Shown here in pieces: positions 1,882 through 54,533 of a stretch of 64,000 nucleotides of DNA. The notes beneath the pieces were generated by a model. It was not told the origin of the DNA. It saw only the letters and a list, made by a program, of their open reading frames with translations, and searched no databases. The DNA comes from a virus, in IMG/VR virus record IMGVR_UViG_3300026118_000002, positions 13,333 to 77,332 of that record; one strand, written 5' to 3'. Positions within the stretch are counted from its first letter, which is position 1. Each line of letters opens with the position of its first letter. Position numbers and translations under genes: made by a program.

Positions 1882-3345
1882 ATGCTCGGTACCTCGACCA
1901 ACTGGCTTGCTGCCGTCTCGCGCCTGCTTCGGCGCGATCATCGGCAGACCTCGTGGGCCTGGATTGATCGTCAATCCTCCTATCTGTTGTTCGACTCCTA
2001 CTACGCCAACACTGCCTACGAGCGCCTGTTCGACGGCGGGCAGCGCGACGCGATCAACGCCTCACTTGGCAACGCCGCCGCTGCGGACATTGCTGGACTG
2101 TACAACCCGGTCGCGAACGTGGTTGACCTATATCTGAACGTGTTCGGCGGTAATTTCGGCGATGAGATTCAAGTCGAGCCAACCGGCAACGCGACACCAG
2201 CGCTCGTCAATGTCATCGGTCAAATCTGGCGATGGTCGAATCTCTCCGTCGAAAAGCAGCCACTGTGCCGCTATGCTGCAACGCATGGCAACGTCGGGCT
2301 ACGCATCGTCGCGCGCAATGACCCCGATCTGACGAAGCGCCGTGTGTATCTCAAGCCAGAGCACCCGCGCATCATTCGTGATCTTGAGCGCGACGAGCGT
2401 GGCAACATTACTGCGATCCAACTCGAATACGACGTGACCAGCGGGCTCGCCGAGAAGGCCACGACGATCACGGTGCGCGAAGAGTTGACCACGGAGATGA
2501 TCCGCTCGTGGCGCGTATCCGGCGGCACCTCGCTCGTCCCCTACGATCTCTTTGCCAAGGCCGATAACGGCCCGCGTTGGGAGTACCCGAACGCGCTCGG
2601 TATCGTCCCGTACGTGCTCCTCAGGCACGAGTACACCGGTGATACCTGGGGGCGTAATGCCTTCTATAAAGCGCTGAGCCCACTGAACCGACTGAACGCG
2701 CTGATCACGCATGTCGATGTTCAAGTGCATAGGCACGTCAACGGCGTGCTGTTCATCGCCGCGAGTGGCGCGGCCCCGACGACCATCGATCTGTCTGGGC
2801 TCAAGGTCGCATACGTCGATACGCGCAACAGCGCCACGACGCCATTTATGCAGTGGATGGTCGCGCCGCTCGATTTGCTTGGCGCAATCGCCGAGATCAA
2901 TCTTCAGCTCGACATGATCGAGGATAGCTTGCCGGAACTCAAGGCGACGGCGGGGAAGTTCCTGTCAGGCCAGAGCGGGCAGACAATCGCAGAACTGCGC
3001 AAGCCGGCTGAGGAGAAGGTCAATCTCGCGCGGGCGAACTACGAGTCGGCACTGATCGATGCACAGAAAATAGCGGTTTCATGGATGGTGCTGCTTGGTA
3101 TGGCTGATGTGGGCACCGGGATGGGCACGCGCGCCGCCGCCGACGCTGCATTCGCGGGCGGCTATGAGGATCATCGCTTCAATACGCGCCCGCTGCTTTC
3201 GCTGACGAGCCCGCCGCCCGCGCCACTGTCAATACCAGGAGCCGCGCCTGTTGTAGCGACACCCCCGGCTGTACCGCCAGCGCAGGGCGGGACGCCACAG
3301 CCGGTGTCGATGGATATGACGACAAAAGCCGGGGGTGCGTCATGA
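1882..3345 (+). CDS. Portal protein (SPP1 gp6-like)
   Basis: 487 aa directly after TerL; YPNALGIVPYV and SGQTIAEL motifs typical of portals. Confidence 0.85.
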   Translation: MLGTSTNWLAAVSRLLRRDHRQTSWAWIDRQSSYLLFDSYYANTAYERLFDGGQRDAINASLGNAAAADIAGLYNPVANVVDLYLNVFGGNFGDEIQVEPTGNATPALVNVIGQIWRWSNLSVEKQPLCRYAATHGNVGLRIVARNDPDLTKRRVYLKPEHPRIIRDLERDERGNITAIQLEYDVTSGLAEKATTITVREELTTEMIRSWRVSGGTSLVPYDLFAKADNGPRWEYPNALGIVPYVLLRHEYTGDTWGRNAFYKALSPLNRLNALITHVDVQVHRHVNGVLFIAASGAAPTTIDLSGLKVAYVDTRNSATTPFMQWMVAPLDLLGAIAEINLQLDMIEDSLPELKATAGKFLSGQSGQTIAELRKPAEEKVNLARANYESALIDAQKIAVSWMVLLGMADVGTGMGTRAAADAAFAGGYEDHRFNTRPLLSLTSPPPAPLSIPGAAPVVATPPAVPPAQGGTPQPVSMDMTTKAGGAS

Positions 3346-3806
3346 ACGACACCATCCACGAATCAGTGCCCGCGCATCGTCAGCCATCAGATGAGGCAAT
3401 CGCCTATTTTCAAGACTGCCGACGCTTGCTCGGCATCAGCGATACATGGCACCTCTGGCTTGAGGTCGCTGATGCGCCATACGGCAATGAGGAAGCAGAC
3501 GGCGCGGCTGATCTTGAGGCGCGTTACCTCAAAGGCACGATCATCTATCGGCGCAATTTGACCGATGCGCGTCGCCCGTTCGTGCTGATGCATGAGGCGT
3601 TCCATGTGGTCTTTGCGCCACTCCAACTCGCACATGATCGCGTGGTCGAACTACTACCAGAGGCGCTACAGACGCACGCACGCGAGCTGCTGTGTGATGC
3701 GGAAGAGCAGATCATTGAGCAACTGACCCGTGCGCTGCAAGCACAGATTACGCCACCGAAAGACGATGCGGTTACACCTAGCGATACGGACAAGGAATCG
3801 TCATGA
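3342..3806 (+). CDS. HExxH zinc-metallopeptidase-like protein
   Basis: VLMHEAFHVV motif with downstream EEQ; ATGA-coupled to portal. Confidence 0.5.
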   Translation: MNDTIHESVPAHRQPSDEAIAYFQDCRRLLGISDTWHLWLEVADAPYGNEEADGAADLEARYLKGTIIYRRNLTDARRPFVLMHEAFHVVFAPLQLAHDRVVELLPEALQTHARELLCDAEEQIIEQLTRALQAQITPPKDDAVTPSDTDKESS

Positions 3807-12677: not shown

Positions 12678-14677
12678 CGGATCGCACACTGAACATCACA
12701 TGGGGCGGCACGGCACCCTGGCTAAACTACGGATACGGCGTCACGACCGAACTGGTTGTGCCGCGCCTTCGTGATCGCCTCGGTCACGAAATGAGCATCA
12801 GCGCCTACTACGGGCTGCCGGGTGGCAAGCTGACTTGGCGCGGCATCCCGGTCTATCCATCCGGCTTTGCGGCCTTCGGTAACGATATTCACGCTGCGAA
12901 TGCCAGGCAAGCGGGTGCCGATCTGCTCATAACGCACCAGGACGCCTGGCCGCAGTCGCCCGCGCAACTCACCGCGAACGGCACGCGCTGGTGTGCGTGG
13001 GCTCCCATCGATAGTGAGCCCATCGCACCGCAGATCGCGATCCGGCTGAAAGAGTGCTATCAGGCGATTGCGCTCTCACACTTCGGTCAGCAGCAGGCCG
13101 CCGCCGCCGGACTCGATCTACCGCTCGTGGTCCAGGGCGTTGACACCGGCGTCTTCACGCCCGGCAGCAAAGCCGAGGCGCGCGAACGCCTCGGATGGCC
13201 GCAGGATGCGTTTATCGTCGGCATGGTCGCGATGAACACCGGCTACCCGTCGCGCAAAGCTTATCCGCAGCAGTTAGAGGCGTTCGGTCAGTTCTTCCAG
13301 CGCCATAGCGATGCCATGATCTATCTGCACTGCTTTGGCGAACCGGAACTGGATGAGAACGCGATCCCGCTCGTGTGGCACCTGGAGCGCTACGGCGCAC
13401 AGCACGCGGCGCTGTGGGCCGATCCTTATCAACTCGCCGTCGGCTACACGCAAGCGCAGATGGTGGACCGCTACCGCGCCTTTGACGTGCTCTTGTGTGT
13501 GAGTATGAGCGAGGGTTTCGGCATCCCCTTAATCGAGGCGCAGGCGTGTGGCTGCCCTGTCATCGTCGGCGACTGGACGGCGATGAGCGAGAACTGCTAC
13601 ACCGGCTGGAAGGTCGCAAAAGAGGATAGCGAGCCGTGGCCGACATCCCCGCTGCGCTGCTTCTGGCGCTTGCCACATATCGGCGCGATTGTTGAGAAGT
13701 TAGAACTGGCGTACATCACACAACACGTCGCTGGTCCTGATCACCCGTCTAGCAGGCGGGCTCTTGGTGAGCGGGCACGCGCTGCTGTTGTTGCTAATCA
13801 CGATCAGGACATGCTGATCGATACGCAATGGCGCGCGGTGCTGAACGACCTTGCGCAGCGCATCGCTGATGAGCCGACGCCCTGGCACCGCCATCAGTGG
13901 GCTGCCTATGGGCATCAGAACGGGCGCGGCGTGATTATGCCGTGTACGGTCAGGGATTGCCCGGCTGAGAGCACTGGTGATGCGATTGCACCAACAGGCT
14001 TCCCGCTCGTGATCGACGGCATCACGCTCGACATCGCCGACGATCCGAACGGTGGGGTCAAGCACGCGATCGCACACGAGATCACCTCGGTCTACCGGCT
14101 GCAAGACCTGGTCTTTCAGCCCGGCGATGTGGTGATCGACGTGGGCGCACATGTCGGCGTGGTGAGCTGTTATCTCGCAAAGAAGTGGCCGCGCATTTTC
14201 ATTATAGCAATCGAGCCTGTTCCTGCAAATTATGATCGGCTCGTGCGGAACGTGGTAACGAACGGCTGCGCGAACGTGAAACACATCCATTCCGCTATCA
14301 CGAGTGATCGACGCGATCTACTGCTCTCTGGCGATCCGGGAGTCAACAGCGGTCACTACAGCGCCTTTGCTGAGACCGGGCCAGACAGCATACTCGTTGC
14401 CAGTATGACGCTTGGCGATCTGCTAGAGACCTATGGCATCCCTTACATTGCCATGTTGAAACTCGACTGCGAGGGCGCAGAATACGAGATCGTCTATGGA
14501 CCAGAACTACTCCATCGAATGGATACGCTTGTGATGGAGGTCCATGAGAACGCGCGGCTGATTGCCGCGCATGGCACCGGCGCGGCACTTGTGGAATACG
14601 CCAATCGCTTCATCCCGATCGTGCGCACGAGCGTGATCACGATTCCTGATGCGGAGGAGGTACCGCATGGCCGTTGA
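12674..14677 (+). CDS. GT4/GT-B glycosyltransferase fused to an FkbM-family SAM methyltransferase
   Basis: GVDTGVFTP, RKAYP and SMSEGFGIPLIEAQACGCPVI (EX7E); C-terminal VIDVGAHVG, AIEP, LKLDCEGAEY. Confidence 0.9.
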   Translation: MTDRTLNITWGGTAPWLNYGYGVTTELVVPRLRDRLGHEMSISAYYGLPGGKLTWRGIPVYPSGFAAFGNDIHAANARQAGADLLITHQDAWPQSPAQLTANGTRWCAWAPIDSEPIAPQIAIRLKECYQAIALSHFGQQQAAAAGLDLPLVVQGVDTGVFTPGSKAEARERLGWPQDAFIVGMVAMNTGYPSRKAYPQQLEAFGQFFQRHSDAMIYLHCFGEPELDENAIPLVWHLERYGAQHAALWADPYQLAVGYTQAQMVDRYRAFDVLLCVSMSEGFGIPLIEAQACGCPVIVGDWTAMSENCYTGWKVAKEDSEPWPTSPLRCFWRLPHIGAIVEKLELAYITQHVAGPDHPSSRRALGERARAAVVANHDQDMLIDTQWRAVLNDLAQRIADEPTPWHRHQWAAYGHQNGRGVIMPCTVRDCPAESTGDAIAPTGFPLVIDGITLDIADDPNGGVKHAIAHEITSVYRLQDLVFQPGDVVIDVGAHVGVVSCYLAKKWPRIFIIAIEPVPANYDRLVRNVVTNGCANVKHIHSAITSDRRDLLLSGDPGVNSGHYSAFAETGPDSILVASMTLGDLLETYGIPYIAMLKLDCEGAEYEIVYGPELLHRMDTLVMEVHENARLIAAHGTGAALVEYANRFIPIVRTSVITIPDAEEVPHGR

Positions 14678-31889: not shown

Positions 31890-32582
31890 TTAGCGCAGCA
31901 CCGGATGGCTGTCTTTGTCGAGATCGCGGAAGCGAGGATCGACAGGTGGGCTGAAAGCGATTACACGCTCGCCGGTTGCATCACGCACACGCAGGGTGCG
32001 GTCGGGCTCAGGCAAGCCCAAACGTTTGCGAGTCTCCGCGACTTCCTGGCTGACGGCGGCGTTGTCACCTCGCAGGATTCCCTCGCGCCGTAGGTCGGTA
32101 ATCGTCCATCCATGTGTCAAGAGTTCGTCAAGAACCGCCTGCCGTGTTCTGTCAAGTGCGGAGCGCGGCGGCTTTGGCGGATCGGCAGACAGATTGACCA
32201 GGACCGCGCTCCGCACAGTCGCTCTCAGTGTCCATGGGTGCAACCGCTTCCAATAAGGCGGCGCACATGGGAGTTCGCCACAGTCTCTTAGTTCAACTGC
32301 CCTACGAATCAGAGTATCCATATAGGCATTGCTCCATACCCAAAACCATTCACCACGGATGCGTCGATGCTGTAATTGCTCATGAATCCATTGCTCGACA
32401 TCATAGGCCCGTACACATTCGATGCATGTTATGTATCGAATCTCAAGAGGGCAATCCGTCTGGGACTGCTTTAGTCGGCGAGCGGGATTGGTGGTTATGC
32501 CTACTTTAACGAATCCGCCGCGTCCTGCACGGGCAACATAGAGATGGGTAATCTGATCTTTTGTTTGTGGTATACTTTGCAT
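31890..32582 (-). CDS. T5orf172/MUG113 (GIY-YIG-like) domain protein
   Basis: LYV...VKVGITTNPARRL..Q...EQWIH...RIRGEWF; GGAGG RBS. Confidence 0.8.
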   Translation of the reverse strand: MQSIPQTKDQITHLYVARAGRGGFVKVGITTNPARRLKQSQTDCPLEIRYITCIECVRAYDVEQWIHEQLQHRRIRGEWFWVWSNAYMDTLIRRAVELRDCGELPCAPPYWKRLHPWTLRATVRSAVLVNLSADPPKPPRSALDRTRQAVLDELLTHGWTITDLRREGILRGDNAAVSQEVAETRKRLGLPEPDRTLRVRDATGERVIAFSPPVDPRFRDLDKDSHPVLR

Positions 32583-32658
32583 TGTTGCCCTACCTCCATA
32601 GGGTGACAATAATAAGAGGTGTGGGGAAGATATTCCCCACACCTCTTATTATAGCACA
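32567..32658. promoter_or_regulatory. Convergent extended -10 promoters flanking two hairpins
   Basis: TGTGGTATACT (+, -10 at 32571-32576); TGTGCTATAAT (-, -10 at 32653-32648); 20-bp perfect inverted repeat at 32609-32652; RBS-containing hairpin at 32581-32610. Confidence 0.55.
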
Positions 32659-32704
32659 AATGCACTGAATGATCAATGTTTTATGGCGTTGTTATGCCAT
32701 AAAA

Positions 32705-33238
32705 CTACTCTAGCGGCTGATAGGACAGATCGGGGTCATTGTGAAATATCGCCCGTGTCGGGCGCTGTGCAATCGGAGTTAGAGTCTCGGATGACTCTGC
32801 CAGCGCTTCGTCTTTTGCGCGTAGTTTTCGCATCAATACAGTGAAGTCGTTATAGTTGCCACCAACCAAGCTGTAAATCTTTTTGCCGCTGTACGCGGGC
32901 TTCCCCGTTGATATCATCTGTCCTGCAAGGATCGTGACTATCTCCTCATATGTTAAGTCTGAAGGAACGGATGCGAGATCGAAGCCCGCTGTATCAGTAC
33001 CAGATACCGATACAGATACCGGTACCTCTTTTTTGATACCAGACCTCTGTGGCTGGGTCGCTACCTGCTGATCGAATGCCGGAGAACTACACACACACAT
33101 CGGTTCGCCCTGATAAGGCCTTACAACCTCAGCATCATGAATAATGCCATAGTCCTCTAAAATAGGCCGCGCGATATAGAACCACAGCCAACCGGCAATG
33201 ATGATCGCGACGAAGATACCGAACAAAGCAGCGACCAT
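32705..33238 (-). CDS. Membrane-anchored protein
   Basis: N-terminal hydrophobic helix MVAALFGIFVAIIIAGWLWFYI. Confidence 0.6.
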   Translation of the reverse strand: MVAALFGIFVAIIIAGWLWFYIARPILEDYGIIHDAEVVRPYQGEPMCVCSSPAFDQQVATQPQRSGIKKEVPVSVSVSGTDTAGFDLASVPSDLTYEEIVTILAGQMISTGKPAYSGKKIYSLVGGNYNDFTVLMRKLRAKDEALAESSETLTPIAQRPTRAIFHNDPDLSYQPLE

Positions 33239-34835: not shown

Positions 34836-35287
34836 TCACTCTCTCCATTCGCCTGTCGTACCGCCTTCTCGAACATCGCCCGCATCTCGGCAGCATTCGC
34901 CTCCAGATCGCCGCCGGGCATGCGCTGGATTGACGGGTCGCTCGTGATCATCCGCTTGCCTCCTGTCCCTTCTCGCCTTCTTCAGCCTTCGTCCGCAGGC
35001 CCGCCGTCGCCCGCCGCACATCGTCGTTTGTCGGCGTGGCAGCAACGGAGTCATCGTCTACTTCACCACAGGCAGCCAGCGCATCAGCCACAATCCGCCG
35101 CGCGCCGATGATCGACTTCATCTGTCCTGTCTGCCGAAGCGCTGCACATAGCCATGTGATCTCCGTATCATGGCGCGCAAGCTCAGCGATCAGATAGTCA
35201 ATATCAGCAGGCGCATTGCGGGCGAACACACCCGCAGCATGATAACTGCCTCGTTCAACGCGCGCCGCATCTAGCCGCGCCTTGATT

Positions 35288-35725
35288 TCATCGATTCTGT
35301 TCATTGTGCTCCTCGCATGCTTTATACGCCGCGCGCCCGATGGCGAGCGCCAGCGTTTCGGCGGATGTCCACTCGCACGGTGACTCGTCTTGGGGAGCAC
35401 CGCGTGACCGAAAGATACAGCGATAGAGATCGGTAGGAAGTAAAAGCGGCGTTTGTAGTTGACACCGGTACCCGAGCGCTTCCATGCGATCGATGATCAA
35501 GAGCGCTGTCACGCGATCTCCACTCAAAGGACGTGGCGCATCCGCCCGACGCGTCGGTACAGGACGCAGCGAACAATCACCGGGCAGGCACCCGATGCTC
35601 TGCTCTGCCGACAGCGGCCAGCCGCAGACCCGACAGAGCGACTCATCCCACACGATGCCCATCACGACCCGCTCGATCAGCGCGTCGAACTCAGGACCAG
35701 CAGGCATCTCGTCTATGTTGATCAT
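35288..35725 (-). CDS. Phage ABA-sandwich-like domain protein
   Basis: DEMPAGPEFDALI..VMG...AETLALAIGRAA pattern. Confidence 0.5.
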   Translation of the reverse strand: MINIDEMPAGPEFDALIERVVMGIVWDESLCRVCGWPLSAEQSIGCLPGDCSLRPVPTRRADAPRPLSGDRVTALLIIDRMEALGYRCQLQTPLLLPTDLYRCIFRSRGAPQDESPCEWTSAETLALAIGRAAYKACEEHNEQNR

Positions 35726-35954
35726 TGGCTTTTCTCTTTTGCTATACGCCGATACACCGCCATGCACCGACGGCAGTCATTGAAGTCGGCAGGCGCATAA
35801 TCGTGCGTCTCGAAATCCCACCATACACGCATATACGAAACCCCACAAAGCGTATGCCCCGGCTTGCCGTAATCATAGCCCTGCATGTGGATGACCGTGC
35901 GATTATCAGGGTTGCCCCATAACGGGCGCTGAGACCAACACACTGGCGTACACA

Positions 35955-36122
35955 TCATCGTCCCTCGCTCACGCGCGGCCAGCCCGCACCGAACCCGTAA
36001 TGGTTCTCAGCCCACGGCGACGCCCACACCGCACGCCGCGCCGCCTCTGGATCGTTCGCTAGCAGCGCGGCGACGATCTCACGATAGGCGGGATACGACA
36101 GCGTCTGAAGTGTCGCCGCCAT
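35955..36122 (-). pseudogene. Stranded original 3' end of the lysozyme-like gene
   Basis: Translates MAATLQTLSYPAYREIVAALLANDPEAARRAVWASPWAENHYG..., which aligns with the C-terminus of 36613-37230; its stop overlaps the next ATG. Confidence 0.75.
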
Positions 36123-36136
36123 GCCATCCACGTTGA

Positions 36137-36628
36137 TTATTCAACAGTAATATCTTTCCACTTCTTGTTGCTTACAATAAGAAAGATATTAGCCTGCGTG
36201 ACACCAAACATTCGCGCTAGTTCAGTTTGTCGATAACATCCCGTCGCATACAATCTTCGGATATCACGAACCCTTGACCAGTCAAGGACGGCTGCGGGGT
36301 TTAGCTCGCCGGACAACCCAACCGCACGCCCTTTTGCTTTTTTGTCTCGGTTATTGTCGCTATATGTACCTTTGAACAAATGTGCGGGATTACAGCATGA
36401 GCGGTTGTCACATCGGTGCAGGACACATAAATCAGCAAGATCATTATGTGTCAAGATATAGGCAATACGGTGGGCGTACTGAACCCTACCGTCCCACCGG
36501 ACATGTCCATATCCAGACTTACCATGTGCCCCCATCCAGTTCCAGCATGCATCACTACCCTTACCACAATCAACCCTTAACCAAAAGTTATCCTGTATAC
36601 ATGCACGTTTTTTCACTTCTTCCTCCAT
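36137..36628 (-). CDS. HNH homing endonuclease with C-terminal HTH
   Basis: CWNWMG...GYG...AHRIAY...VLHRCDNRSCCNPAHL..GT.SDN; visibly lower GC. Confidence 0.9.
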   Translation of the reverse strand: MEEEVKKRACIQDNFWLRVDCGKGSDACWNWMGAHGKSGYGHVRWDGRVQYAHRIAYILTHNDLADLCVLHRCDNRSCCNPAHLFKGTYSDNNRDKKAKGRAVGLSGELNPAAVLDWSRVRDIRRLYATGCYRQTELARMFGVTQANIFLIVSNKKWKDITVE

Positions 36629-37230
36629 TCCTGTCCAAACAAGACACCGCCACCATATCTATTACTTGACCAGGGGCTTGCGATAAGTGCCCGATAAGCG
36701 AGGTCGGGGTTGTTCGTCTGTAGTCCGGTAACAATATCGTCGTAAAGGCCGTTGGTGAGTGTCGCTACCGTGGCCGCCATACCGCTTTCATAATCAGGAT
36801 AGGCCTTTACGCCGTCACTATCAATAGTCGCATATGCCCCATAGCCGGGCATGGTTGAGTTTAGCCAGTTATTGCGTTCCCATGCGCTGCTATATCCGCA
36901 GTTATGCATACATCCATCTTCAGCAAGCGACCATTCCACAAGCATCGCCACTGTCGTCGGGCTGGGCTGCGTATTGCCGAGATGCCGCAAGAGATCGACC
37001 GCCCACGCATCCCGCGATACGCTTCCATCGCCCGCCGCCGTCTCGGCATCGCTCTGCGCGACCGAAGACACCGCACGGGGCACTGAGGTGGCTTGGCGTG
37101 GCGATATGCGCACGAGGTAGTTGCCGAGCGGCGTAGCGACCTGATAGGCGCTGGCGCAGCTTGTCAGCAGGAGTGCGAGTGTGAGTGTGGTGAGGGTGCG
37201 AGTCACGAGTCGCCTTTCCAGGTATTCCAC
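36613..37230 (-). CDS. Lipoprotein with a lysozyme-like domain (start may be GTG near 37206)
   Basis: Lipobox LLLTSC; W..AE...NNWLNST...GVKAY...GMAATVATL.NG.Y...ASPW. Confidence 0.6.
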   Translation of the reverse strand: MEYLERRLVTRTLTTLTLALLLTSCASAYQVATPLGNYLVRISPRQATSVPRAVSSVAQSDAETAAGDGSVSRDAWAVDLLRHLGNTQPSPTTVAMLVEWSLAEDGCMHNCGYSSAWERNNWLNSTMPGYGAYATIDSDGVKAYPDYESGMAATVATLTNGLYDDIVTGLQTNNPDLAYRALIASPWSSNRYGGGVLFGQEWRKK

Positions 37231-37910
37231 ACAGGCGGCTCCCTGCTAATTTCGGGAAGATAGATGCCATCGATCTTGTCAGGACGAACGTACTTCACAA
37301 GGAAGTCAACGACACCGCGCCGCTCAACGCGCCAAACTACACCCTCGACAACATCAAGCGCCCCGTGACCAGAACAGACAACCGCGTCTAATGCCTGCTC
37401 TAACCCGAAAGCACCCCCTTGATGGAGGAGTCGTGGCGTCACAACTTCAGCCCGCCCCGCAACTGACAGTAGCATCTCGTAAGGAAGTCGTTGTGCGTCA
37501 ACCATCAGATCAAGAGCAACGAAGGGCTCGTGCGGTAGCGCGTATCGTGTGCTATGCGCCTGTATTAGCCACTCCCCCACCAAGCGCTCACCATCGTTCA
37601 GTACCGAGAGGAAGCGCCGTTCGTTCGCCTCTACCCACCGTGCAAAGCGATGGTGCTGCTCATGTGGCGATGTATCGGCAAGATAACCAGCGCGGGTGAG
37701 CGCGAATAATTTCCCGCCGAGCCGCGCAACGCCGACGTTTGAGCCGTCAAGCTTTTCAGTAGCAATGACAACATCGTGTCGATCTCGCGTGCGCTCACAC
37801 GCGATTCGCGCTTGCCCTTCATGGCAGTGATGATCGCCCGGCCCCATCCGACTGCCTGGCAAGTGCGCAATCGACCCGTAGTTCTTTCTGTTCAGTGGCT
37901 TGTTCGCCAT
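37203..37910 (-). CDS. RNA ligase-family nucleotidyltransferase
   Basis: Motif I TEKLDGSN, III LVGEW, IV EGVVWR, V VKYVR. Confidence 0.8.
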   Translation of the reverse strand: MANKPLNRKNYGSIAHLPGSRMGPGDHHCHEGQARIACERTRDRHDVVIATEKLDGSNVGVARLGGKLFALTRAGYLADTSPHEQHHRFARWVEANERRFLSVLNDGERLVGEWLIQAHSTRYALPHEPFVALDLMVDAQRLPYEMLLSVAGRAEVVTPRLLHQGGAFGLEQALDAVVCSGHGALDVVEGVVWRVERRGVVDFLVKYVRPDKIDGIYLPEISREPPVWNTWKGDS

Positions 37911-37938
37911 CACACATCCCTTCGGAAATCTTCGGATT

Positions 37939-38646
37939 CTACGTGAGCCGCCGGAAGGCGATGACCCACACAAACCGATTCGACTCAAATGAATAGCCGG
38001 GCTTGCCGTGCATCGAATCCCACGCTAATTGGAAATAGGCGCGTGGATACAGTTCGTCTTGCGGATCGCGTGGGCAGTACGCGGCTGCCCACGCCCCGAT
38101 GCCTTCCGCCTCAGCGTCTTCGTCTGTGATCGATTGAATCCGCTGCACACTCACGCTCATGACTTCGTGTGTGATGCGCGATGCCCAACGCGGCATGAAG
38201 ATAGATGCGCAGTGCGATGTCTGCTTGTGGTGCGTCCATACGATCATCGCCGCATCGTCGGCGCGGTCGCATCCAACCGGTTCATCATCGGCACGAAAGC
38301 GCCATTCGCCCGCTTCGTTCTCGTACATAGACTCACGAGTCCAGAGATGGTCTCCTACGACGCCGTACGGACACCGGGCATGCCACAAGCCACCCTCGCA
38401 GTACCATTCGCCCGATTCCTCGTCAAACAGGATTTTGTCAGTATCCGGCCCGGTGAGTCCGATGATGATGCCGCGATCTCGAATGGTCAGTCCTTTTATG
38501 ATTCGCCGCGTCTGCCACTTGAGAGGCAGTGCTGCATTGATCGACTGCGCAGGCCATGTGCCGATCTTCGTGTTCAGAATCGCGCGTATCATCTCGCCTC
38601 GGAAGAGGATCGGACGCTCGCGTACCTTCGTTGCTGTTGTCATCAT
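37939..38646 (-). CDS. ASCH/PUA-like phage protein
   Basis: ERPILF..EMIRAIL...QTRR...CPYG..GD.LW.RE...SIFMPRWASRI. Confidence 0.7.
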   Translation of the reverse strand: MMTTATKVRERPILFRGEMIRAILNTKIGTWPAQSINAALPLKWQTRRIIKGLTIRDRGIIIGLTGPDTDKILFDEESGEWYCEGGLWHARCPYGVVGDHLWTRESMYENEAGEWRFRADDEPVGCDRADDAAMIVWTHHKQTSHCASIFMPRWASRITHEVMSVSVQRIQSITDEDAEAEGIGAWAAAYCPRDPQDELYPRAYFQLAWDSMHGKPGYSFESNRFVWVIAFRRLT

Positions 38647-53204: not shown

Positions 53205-54175
53205 GTCGTGTTCTTTGCCTTTGCAAACGGATTCAACTTCTTGGCAGCGGCAGCCATCTCGTCAGGCGTGCCGCGTGGCTCGGTCGGCGGCTGGTAGAGC
53301 GGAAGCGACGGGCGCTGTTGCCCCTGCGGCGCGGGTCCGTTGGCGTGTGCGCTATTGCCGTTCAGGCTGGGCGGGATAACCGCAGTCGCCTTCCCCCAAA
53401 TCTCAATAAGCTCATAAGGCTCTGGCGGGCGCTTTTCTTTTTTGGCCCGCCAGTCGTAGTCGTACCACCAGCGTTCGCGGATACGCACATCGTCGGGTGT
53501 TGCATCGGCTTTCTTGAGTGTTCGATATGCTTCGTTCAGTTCCTTACGCTGTCTTGAAATGGCGATCTTTGGGTCAATCTTGCAGGCTTCCGCAATAGCA
53601 AGTGCTAGTTCATTTCGGGTGTGTGTGTGTTCACGCGCGGTAACTGGTACTGATTCACTCACACACACATCTGGATTCTTAACATGTTCTTCTTCTTGTT
53701 CATACAGTGAACACTTCACGTTCACTGTATGAACACTTTCGTCTAAAGCGTTCGTGTGGTGAACGCTTTCCGGTGTAGCTGTTCGTGTGGTGAACGCTTC
53801 TTTTGTAGTGTTCACTGTATGAACACTTTCGTCTGTGTCTTCTTTGCTGTATTTTCTGAAGTTCTCAGGCCAGAGATCAACGATAGTTATCTGGTCTACT
53901 TGCCCGCCGCGCGTGGTTCGCGTCGTCTTCTCTATCAGGTGCTTATCGAGTAGTTCTTGCTTGGCTTTCGATACCTGTCCCATAGACATACGACACGCTG
54001 CTGCGATCGCCCGCGTCCCTTCCCAGCATGCGCCATCGTCGCCAGCTCGTCGCTTGAGATGGACGTAGAGACGAAATGCGTAGACAGAGAGATCGGAATC
54101 TGCTATCAGGTTCGGCAGTTCGGTACGATAGCGATGTAACGAACTTCGGTCTTTGATGCGCGTTTGGTCGGTCAT
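53201..54175 (-). CDS. Replication initiator (lambda O-like, N-terminal HTH)
   Basis: LSVYAFRLY..L...AG...CW....IA..C.MS...V; directly upstream of dnaB; internal iterons. Confidence 0.8.
   Translation of the reverse strand: MTDQTRIKDRSSLHRYRTELPNLIADSDLSVYAFRLYVHLKRRAGDDGACWEGTRAIAAACRMSMGQVSKAKQELLDKHLIEKTTRTTRGGQVDQITIVDLWPENFRKYSKEDTDESVHTVNTTKEAFTTRTATPESVHHTNALDESVHTVNVKCSLYEQEEEHVKNPDVCVSESVPVTAREHTHTRNELALAIAEACKIDPKIAISRQRKELNEAYRTLKKADATPDDVRIRERWWYDYDWRAKKEKRPPEPYELIEIWGKATAVIPPSLNGNSAHANGPAPQGQQRPSLPLYQPPTEPRGTPDEMAAAAKKLNPFAKAKNTT
53698..53834. repeat. Iterons / replication origin inside the initiator gene
   Basis: Five GTTC-N7-GAAC(A/G)CTT units; 25-bp direct repeat at 53720 and 53810; 19-bp direct repeat at 53750 and 53781. 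Confidence 0.75.
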
Positions 54176-54182
54176 AGGGTGC

Positions 54183-54533
54183 TTATCGCGCGCCCTTCCG
54201 GCTATTACAGGAGCGGCATAGTGTCTGTAGATTACTCTTATCGAGTGTGCCGCCGGCGATTTCAGGGATGATATGATCGACTGTTAAATCCTCATTCGTC
54301 CCGCAATAGCAGCAGGTGTATTCATCTCTTGAGAATATTTCTATTCGGAGCGTGTGCGGTATCTTTCGTTTTGCCCTTCTCGCGGGGGCCGGTGTATCAA
54401 TCTGCTTGCGCAGACGATCTAAAAAGTGCTTTATGTCTGATGATCGGGAGCGGGCGGCAAGAAACGCGGCCCCCTCATATGACCATCCGAGCGACATGAG
54501 TAGTTCTGTTGCGTGCAGTGCCTGCTTGGTCAT
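54183..54533 (-). CDS. HNH endonuclease
   Basis: RD.YTCCYCG...LTVDHIIP...GG....NLQTLCRSCNSRKG. Confidence 0.9.
   Translation of the reverse strand: MTKQALHATELLMSLGWSYEGAAFLAARSRSSDIKHFLDRLRKQIDTPAPARRAKRKIPHTLRIEIFSRDEYTCCYCGTNEDLTVDHIIPEIAGGTLDKSNLQTLCRSCNSRKGAR

Follow-up and report, generated by a model that had tools for sequence, protein, structure and literature searches.

The design in which an endonuclease gene travels together with a spare end of the gene it enters is known from fungal mitochondria and from yeast. In fungal mitochondria, elements termed mORFs create gene hybrids, for example in atp6 of Allomyces macrogynus and in atp6, atp9, cox2 and nad3 of Glomus (PMC3630166, citing Paquin et al. 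1994). WHO elements of Torulaspora and Lachancea yeasts home into the FBA1 gene (PMC7282813; bioRxiv 10.64898/2026.08.13.744650). A limited literature search gave no description of such a design in a phage. Here we present a locus with the corresponding layout in an uncultured soil phage. It lies in a stretch of 64,000 nucleotides (further referred to as the window), which covers positions 13,333 to 77,332 of virus record IMGVR_UViG_3300026118_000002, a complete 77,332-bp IMG/VR record with direct terminal repeats that originates from a rhizosphere metagenome. The locus comprises a gene that we call X, a free-standing HNH endonuclease gene and an orphan open reading frame (ORF) resembling the end of X, all of them, like every feature discussed below, on the minus strand. 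We propose that a homing-endonuclease cassette replaced the 3' end of X, either by one-sided illegitimate repair or by homing of the WHO or mORF type, and we regard this as the probable origin of the locus.

Gene X (37230..36613) encodes a protein of 205 amino acids (aa) with the C-terminus ...GMAATVATLTNGLYDDIVTGLQTNNPDLAYRALIASPWSSNRYGGGVLFGQEWRKK*. It is followed directly by the endonuclease gene (36628..36137; 163 aa if read from its ATG), which belongs to the HNH_3 family. Between the HNH stop and the first codon of the orphan there are, as read from the sequence, just five bases, TCAAC (36132..36136), and the orphan itself (36131..35955) takes up 58 codons and a stop. A gene for a 78-aa protein without family match comes next (35958..35722). 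Its ATG overlaps the TGA of the orphan as ATGA, and the 78-aa gene thus keeps its original gene-to-gene junction. The order of X, HNH gene and orphan, as well as the overlap at the end of the orphan, had been pointed out in a preliminary description made from the letters of the window, and both hold: the three ORFs are contiguous. In other words, an endonuclease ORF stands directly 3' of a complete host gene and a second copy of the 3' end of this gene comes after it.

Duplication of the end of X is confirmed far beyond chance. BLASTP aligns residues 150-204 of X with residues 3-53 of the orphan (26/55 identities, 47%, E 3e-14), and homology of the orphan to the X family begins already at its residue 2 (DGMAAT...). 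The replacement copy, contained in the 3' part of X, occupies positions 36616-36785. At the DNA level the two copies are only about 50% identical, the exception being GGnATGGCGGCnAC at the start of the duplicated part. The orphan contains no internal stop and no frameshift. It was called as a 55-aa protein on two contigs, and in a set of 5.8 billion proteins the sole match of the 58-aa sequence is itself.

The end of X that is in use and the HNH gene are supported as a single compositionally foreign block. Content of guanine and cytosine (GC) is 0.45-0.53 from about 36075 to about 36950 and 0.60-0.69 on both flanks; positions 36132-36950 (about 820 bp) have 48% GC, compared to 59-60% in neighbouring DNA and in the whole window. 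GC content at third codon positions (GC3) is 0.74 in codons 1-96 of X, 0.51 in codons 97-205, 0.43 in the HNH gene and again 0.74 in the orphan. Hence the end in use and the HNH gene are foreign by composition, and the stranded end is native, as is the 5' part of X. The best GC3 change-point in X falls after codon 96, at about 36943 (permutation p 0.02, Fisher p 0.001), and divides the gene into a native 5' part (codons 1 to about 96-105; 36944..37230) and a foreign 3' part (codons about 97-205 and the stop; 36613..36943). On the right, GC content switches from 0.45 to 0.62-0.69 at the TCAAC junction, and the low-GC tract ends exactly at the HNH stop. The GC3 values and the GC profile therefore define a low-GC tract that begins about 55 codons upstream of the duplicated part (about 36785) and ends at the HNH stop. 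The preliminary description was correct in noting an AT-richer tract and a GC-rich orphan, but its notion that the tract starts at the duplication has to be corrected, because the tract begins near codon 96.

The two foreign parts also look like one co-adapted unit, judging from the way they are joined. The conserved W-R near the C-terminus of X is coded by TGGAGG, which creates a GGAGG ribosome-binding site (36626-36622) inside the last codons of X, five bases before a GTG that overlaps the X stop as GTGA. Because of this site and this overlap, the HNH gene probably starts at the GTG at 36616 and not at the upstream ATG.

The relationships of both ends point in the same direction as the composition. 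The family of X is large and has no family name; at E<=1e-3, a search by profile yielded 2,694 representatives. Residues 97-149 of X are 85% identical to P0002, a database relative, residues 150-192 are 74% identical and residues 69-96 are 61% identical. In our first set of homologues (n=22, alignment A1) the end of X in use pairs with P0002 with support 97/93. Wider sampling later led to a tree of 57 sequences, where the pair is found, with support 94, within a subfamily ending in RYGGG...WR. The motifs of this subfamily, CxxxCGYSS and RYGGG..F.Q.WR, are present in the end in use. Members of another subfamily, which we call WP-type, are without the Cys pair, often have V-E-W before an AED motif and end with ...SHYGxGxxWP. 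The orphan terminates with ...NHYGFGAGWPR. Its identity to the ends of P0030 (E 2e-26) and P0031 amounts to 73% and 69%, respectively, as opposed to 47% identity to the resident copy, and the 57-sequence tree places it inside the WP-type clade with support 82. We consider it the native end because its GC3 of 0.74 equals that of the 5' part of X and because it shares 73% of residues with ends of the other subfamily.

The first tree gave the orphan a branch of 1.22, which suggested that it had decayed. We abandoned this idea once its own subfamily had been sampled, as the terminal branch is 0.43 in the 57-sequence tree, where the median is 0.30; the long branch arose because the orphan belongs to a different subfamily, at that time unsampled. 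The 5' part of X carries M96 and E99 (the "VEW" residues), which in this sample otherwise occur only together with WP-type tails. Given the kinship of the end in use to P0002, the kinship of the orphan to the WP-type subfamily and the WP-type signature residues in the 5' part, X is, as far as its sequence tells, a chimera, in which the 5' part shares its type with the orphan and the end in use is of a different type; the orphan is its intact native end. The crossover can be placed only within codons of about 96-106, inside a conserved block V-x-W-[ST]-x-A-E-D.

The composition and subfamily evidence thus bears out the core of the preliminary description, namely that the 3' end was replaced and the original one stranded. 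The ancestral state was a GC-rich X of the "Cys-less / VEW / HYGxGxxWP" subfamily, its stop overlapping the next ATG. Into this gene came about 820 bp of DNA from a relative richer in AT, consisting of the 3' half of a gene of the CxxxCGYSS...RYGGG..F.Q.WR subfamily and the GTGA-coupled HNH gene.

Comparison with mORFs reveals close similarity of arrangement. There, too, a host gene with a foreign C-terminal part is followed by an endonuclease ORF and by the stranded native C-terminal part, the native copy resembles relatives while the inserted copy comes from elsewhere, and the copies are strongly diverged, although DNA identity is 64-81% in mORFs and about 50% here (PMC3630166). On the other hand, endonucleases of mORFs are of LAGLIDADG or GIY-YIG type and their hosts are mitochondrial respiratory genes, whereas here we deal with an HNH enzyme and a phage gene resembling cell-wall hydrolases. 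Some mORFs continue the reading frame of the host gene (PMC3630166), whereas the HNH gene forms an ORF of its own that overlaps the X stop. Element-free sister species are available for mORFs (PMC3630166), and for this phage none was found.

Likeness to WHO elements extends to the mobile unit itself, which combines the endonuclease gene with a host-gene 3' half that is resistant (PMC7282813), resistance being presumed in our case. After each homing event of WHO the host gene is chimeric but of full length, and its former 3' end is displaced downstream (PMC7282813); the layout described above matches this outcome. In yeast, the 5' part of the host gene has had another history than its 3' part (PMC7282813; bioRxiv 10.64898/2026.08.13.744650), and the same appears to be true of X. 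The enzymes differ: that of WHO is a LAGLIDADG protein that derives from an intein, carries a zinc finger and is active in meiotic diploids, and its cleavage and allele specificity were shown experimentally (PMC7282813), while those of the phage HNH enzyme are presumed. WHO elements also form clusters of several elements and fragments (PMC7282813), in contrast to the single element and single fragment found here.

Among phages, the nearest described relatives are free-standing HNH endonucleases such as MobA and MobE of T4 and the I-HmuI-like enzymes of Skunavirus. Such enzymes share with ours the HNH_3-type His-Me finger and a C-terminal DNA-binding domain, and they are likewise encoded between or beside conserved genes (PMC2988022, PMC2790892, PMC12724721). 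Co-conversion of flanking host sequence is the rule of intronless homing in phages, and in the cases described both flanks recombine homologously, so that no duplicated gene end is left; here such an end was left behind (PMC2988022, PMC2790892, PMC12724721). In the phage homing-endonuclease literature covered by a limited search (T4, mobE, Skunavirus HNH enzymes and nucleases at exchange boundaries) we found no stranded gene end described, which is not proof of absence.

A possible course of the replacement is as follows. An HNH enzyme from a co-infecting donor would cut or nick an HNH-free allele of X somewhere in native codons of about 96-150. Resection of the left end would follow, and homologous recombination would repair it within the V-x-W-[ST]-x-A-E-D block (codons of about 96-106), whose conservation may permit homologous invasion between diverged alleles. 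Subsequent synthesis would copy the 3' half of the donor X together with the HNH gene. On the right side, two routes can be imagined. In the first of them, one-sided homing, the copied DNA would be joined illegitimately to the broken end. Experiments on T4 introns document one-sided homing in which homology on one side only leads, after resection, to illegitimate repair at microhomologies (PMC2988022, citing Parker et al. 1999). In the second route, modelled on WHO elements, the copied DNA would pair with an older X fragment already present behind the HNH gene of the donor; in yeast, an old host-gene fragment of the donor located behind the endonuclease gene supplies right-side homology in this way (PMC7282813). 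Either route would give rise to a full-length chimeric X, presumably resistant to the enzyme, then the HNH gene and then the old 3' end of the recipient as an orphan.

The preliminary description sought the target near ATGGCGGC. This cannot be upheld in such form: ATGGCGGC is the right limit of the region where the cut could lie and not a mapped site, and because the converted tract already includes about 160 bp upstream of it, the cut may have taken place anywhere in native codons of about 96-150. The expression that homing was caught in the act is fair to the extent of three facts, an intact HNH gene, an HNH composition unlike that of the phage and an undecayed orphan, and goes too far beyond them. 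The event may have been recent.

Other explanations deserve to be weighed against homing-driven replacement. The strongest of them is ordinary mosaic recombination with HNH as a passenger, i.e. a homologous crossover in X and an illegitimate crossover after the HNH gene, following a break that HNH did not make. The same evidence from composition and subfamilies fits it, nuclease genes are known at boundaries of exchanged phage segments (PMC10448857), and cleavage of X by the HNH enzyme is something we infer. We nevertheless consider this course rather unlikely. The foreign block consists of the gene end and the HNH gene only and ends exactly at the HNH stop, a self-sufficient homing element is expected to contain just these two parts as a minimum (PMC7282813), and the orphan begins at the sole DNA stretch that both copies still have in common. 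It is clearly less plausible still that the 3' end of X was duplicated in tandem in place, followed by insertion of the HNH gene between the copies and by their divergence. Here the approximately unbiased (AU) test does not reject a single clade of both copies (p 0.21), but the tree constrained in this way is 18.7 log-likelihood units worse. DNA identity of the copies is only about 50%, their GC3 values (0.54 and 0.74) are unlike, each of them bears the tail motif of a different, widespread subfamily, and the low-GC tract reaches about 160 bp upstream of the duplicated part and is continuous with the HNH gene. Duplication in place explains neither this tract nor the two kinds of tail. Splicing, with the HNH gene residing in a self-splicing intron or in another element removed at the RNA or protein level and the orphan as a true second exon, is a reading for which the position and frame of the orphan speak, as they would allow joining after codon of about 149 into a full-length protein. 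We hold it for very unlikely. Rfam at E<=10 matched neither strand of 35500-37500; a non-coding intron core would find no space, given that the HNH gene overlaps X and that the orphan follows its stop after only five bases; and X already possesses a complete end of family length with its own stop. As for an intein, the HNH protein is without a Hint/intein domain and its gene is a separate ORF. The event was thus very probably intronless, as the preliminary description had supposed. Least probable of all, to a degree that we find hardly credible, is a chimeric metagenomic contig. The record is a metagenome assembly, and the search for sequencing runs containing this sequence listed one DNA run only, probably the source, and no RNA run. 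The two copies are nevertheless too different to mislead an assembler, an independent Logan contig of the run spans 35000-38000 without interruption at depth 13, differs from the record at 0 positions and shows no alternative joints, and two contigs each have been recorded with the chimeric X and with the orphan.

Several points weigh against homing-driven replacement itself, in addition to the presumed cleavage of X. One is the AU result for the two copies as one clade (p 0.21, not significant) despite the worse likelihood. Grouping of the 5' part of X with P0002-5 is not rejected either (AU p 0.75, not significant). Phylogenetic segments are short, 37-56 columns, and AU tests on these do not reject alternatives; the 37-column tree of the 5' part of X gave no resolution, and evidence for the type of this part consists of GC3 and the two signature residues only. 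Another point is that the other HNH relatives (28 loci) are mostly without flanking duplications. Finally, IMG/VR, JGI metagenomes, GTDB genomes and GenBank phages yielded no HNH-free allele, no donor and no close relative of the phage or of its native X. IMG/VR was searched for relatives with the X family, the RNA ligase and a 159-aa neighbour, and the database searches found only distant homologues of X without shared gene order. For this reason we infer the states before and after the replacement.

The function of X can be approached only through structure and relatives. The protein matches nothing in Pfam or PHROG, and Foldseek with its model found no match either. The domain (residues 70-205) was modelled with moderate confidence (pLDDT, the predicted local distance difference test score, 71). 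In an exhaustive structural search the seven best matches of the model are all cell-wall hydrolases: the FlgJ glucosaminidase (5dn5, Z 6.9), a GH73 enzyme of Thermotoga (4qdn, Z 6.8) and AtlA (Z 5.4), then an amidase entry and phage endolysins (Z 4.0-4.2). Since all of them are below Z 8, the cell-wall-hydrolase fold is suggestive only. In longer relatives the domain is fused to Peptidase_M23, CHAP or VanY domains, and such N-terminal fusions are frequent in the family (P0026, P0038, P0068, P0077, P0114, P0116). The 5' part of X, which also holds the start of the conserved domain, codes for a lipobox-type signal, LLTSC, at residues 21-25. Together, fold matches, peptidase fusions of relatives and lipobox make X likely to be a membrane-anchored protein with a peptidoglycan-hydrolase-like function. 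The label "lysozyme-like" used in the preliminary description is reasonable in view of the GH73 matches and the fusions, albeit with moderate support only, as there is no Pfam match and every Z is below 8. The domain may represent an uncurated peptidoglycan-hydrolase family worth defining. In two short database proteins, P0105 (76 aa) and P0042 (113 aa), similarity is confined to the C-terminal portion of the domain; either they were truncated at the edge of a contig or they may be additional gene ends that became stranded.

The endonuclease is assigned more easily. It matches Pfam HNH_3 with 26.6 bits (cut-off 24.8) and HNH families of PHROG with E-values down to 1.7e-27 (phrog_59); a relative in PDB was not found by sequence. 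All 17/17 columns that are invariant in 15 relatives are kept, including H-x-CDNRSCCNP-x-H, and the catalytic and zinc-binding residues are intact. In the model (pLDDT 86) the N-terminal domain is a His-Me finger, similar to I-PpoI (Z 7.1) and I-HmuI (Z 5.0), the latter being also the top Foldseek row. The C-terminal part of about 60 residues (about 100-163) folds into three helices of a helix-turn-helix (HTH), with HTH domains of Tc3, Hin, resolvase and DeoR at Z 4.6-5.6, which gives modest support to a separate DNA-binding domain. From its sequence and model, the HNH gene looks intact and functional. Its occurrence may be sporadic: it is missing at five loci with homologues of X, each of which has a single gene end, although the homologues are distant ones, of 60-68% aa identity, and gene order at these loci has nothing in common with that of the phage.

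We scanned 29 HNH-relative loci for flanking duplications. One candidate (L010) was rejected, since its repeat is a domain common to two structural genes. In another locus (L015; IMGVR_UViG_3300020044_006011, 2880-3480), the HNH_3 relative (ORF 2947..3438) is 37% identical to the HNH protein of the window. Here the first eight codons (MGKRSDFE) of the downstream methyltransferase-like gene are duplicated around the HNH gene, the copies differ only synonymously, and the upstream copy sits behind a GGAGGGG ribosome-binding site. By its sequence this looks like a mirror-image miniature, a cassette carrying a recoded 5' end.

The window contains two more genes of this kind, neither with a flanking duplication. 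A 250-aa protein with a T5orf172/MUG113 domain (GIY-YIG-like homing-endonuclease family) is encoded at 31890-32642 on the minus strand. Its gene lies 3.3 kb downstream of the HNH cassette in another island of low GC content (0.48 over 32401-33000). At 54183-54533, also on the minus strand, there is a second HNH gene, unrelated to the first (116 aa, Pfam HNH/HNH_5), which adjoins a gene for an HTH_36 protein and a low-GC stretch at 53401-54000 (GC 0.48). As to the surroundings of the cassette, the upstream neighbour of X is an RNA ligase-like gene (37988..37203; Pfam RNA_ligase 3.6e-21). We found no terminal repeats bounding the cassette and no promoter or terminator signal above background. 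Translational coupling of the downstream gene may be preserved by the frame of the orphan, which opens five bases past the HNH stop and still overlaps the ATG that comes next.

If our assumptions are true, free-standing homing endonucleases of phages enter genes without an intron or intein and bring along a spare, presumably cut-resistant end. This would be a "cleave and rescue" design occurring in nature, of which descriptions exist so far from mitochondria of fungi and nuclei of yeasts, and a concrete route by which homing endonucleases give rise to chimeric genes in phages and to small orphan ORFs. The latter are readily taken for hypothetical proteins in annotation, and the orphan described here was indeed called as a 55-aa gene. 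The boundary of the orphan gives a hint to the target region of the enzyme. Further elements of this type can be searched for by a simple rule, an endonuclease gene between two diverged copies of the end of its neighbour.

We tentatively go one step further, although we see it as a possibility rather than an expectation: the cassette might be a phage counterpart of the yeast WHO, a cut-and-rescue unit that homes repeatedly into the X family with its 2,694 representatives. In that case, it would shuffle subfamily-specific C-terminal halves between phages and drive an arms race at the target site, and the cassette would contribute to a third general category of homing elements in prokaryotic viruses, beside introns and inteins. 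The locus is of value mainly as a clear case from a phage, and because it points to cut-and-rescue homing cassettes as a class that may be general among viruses of prokaryotes.

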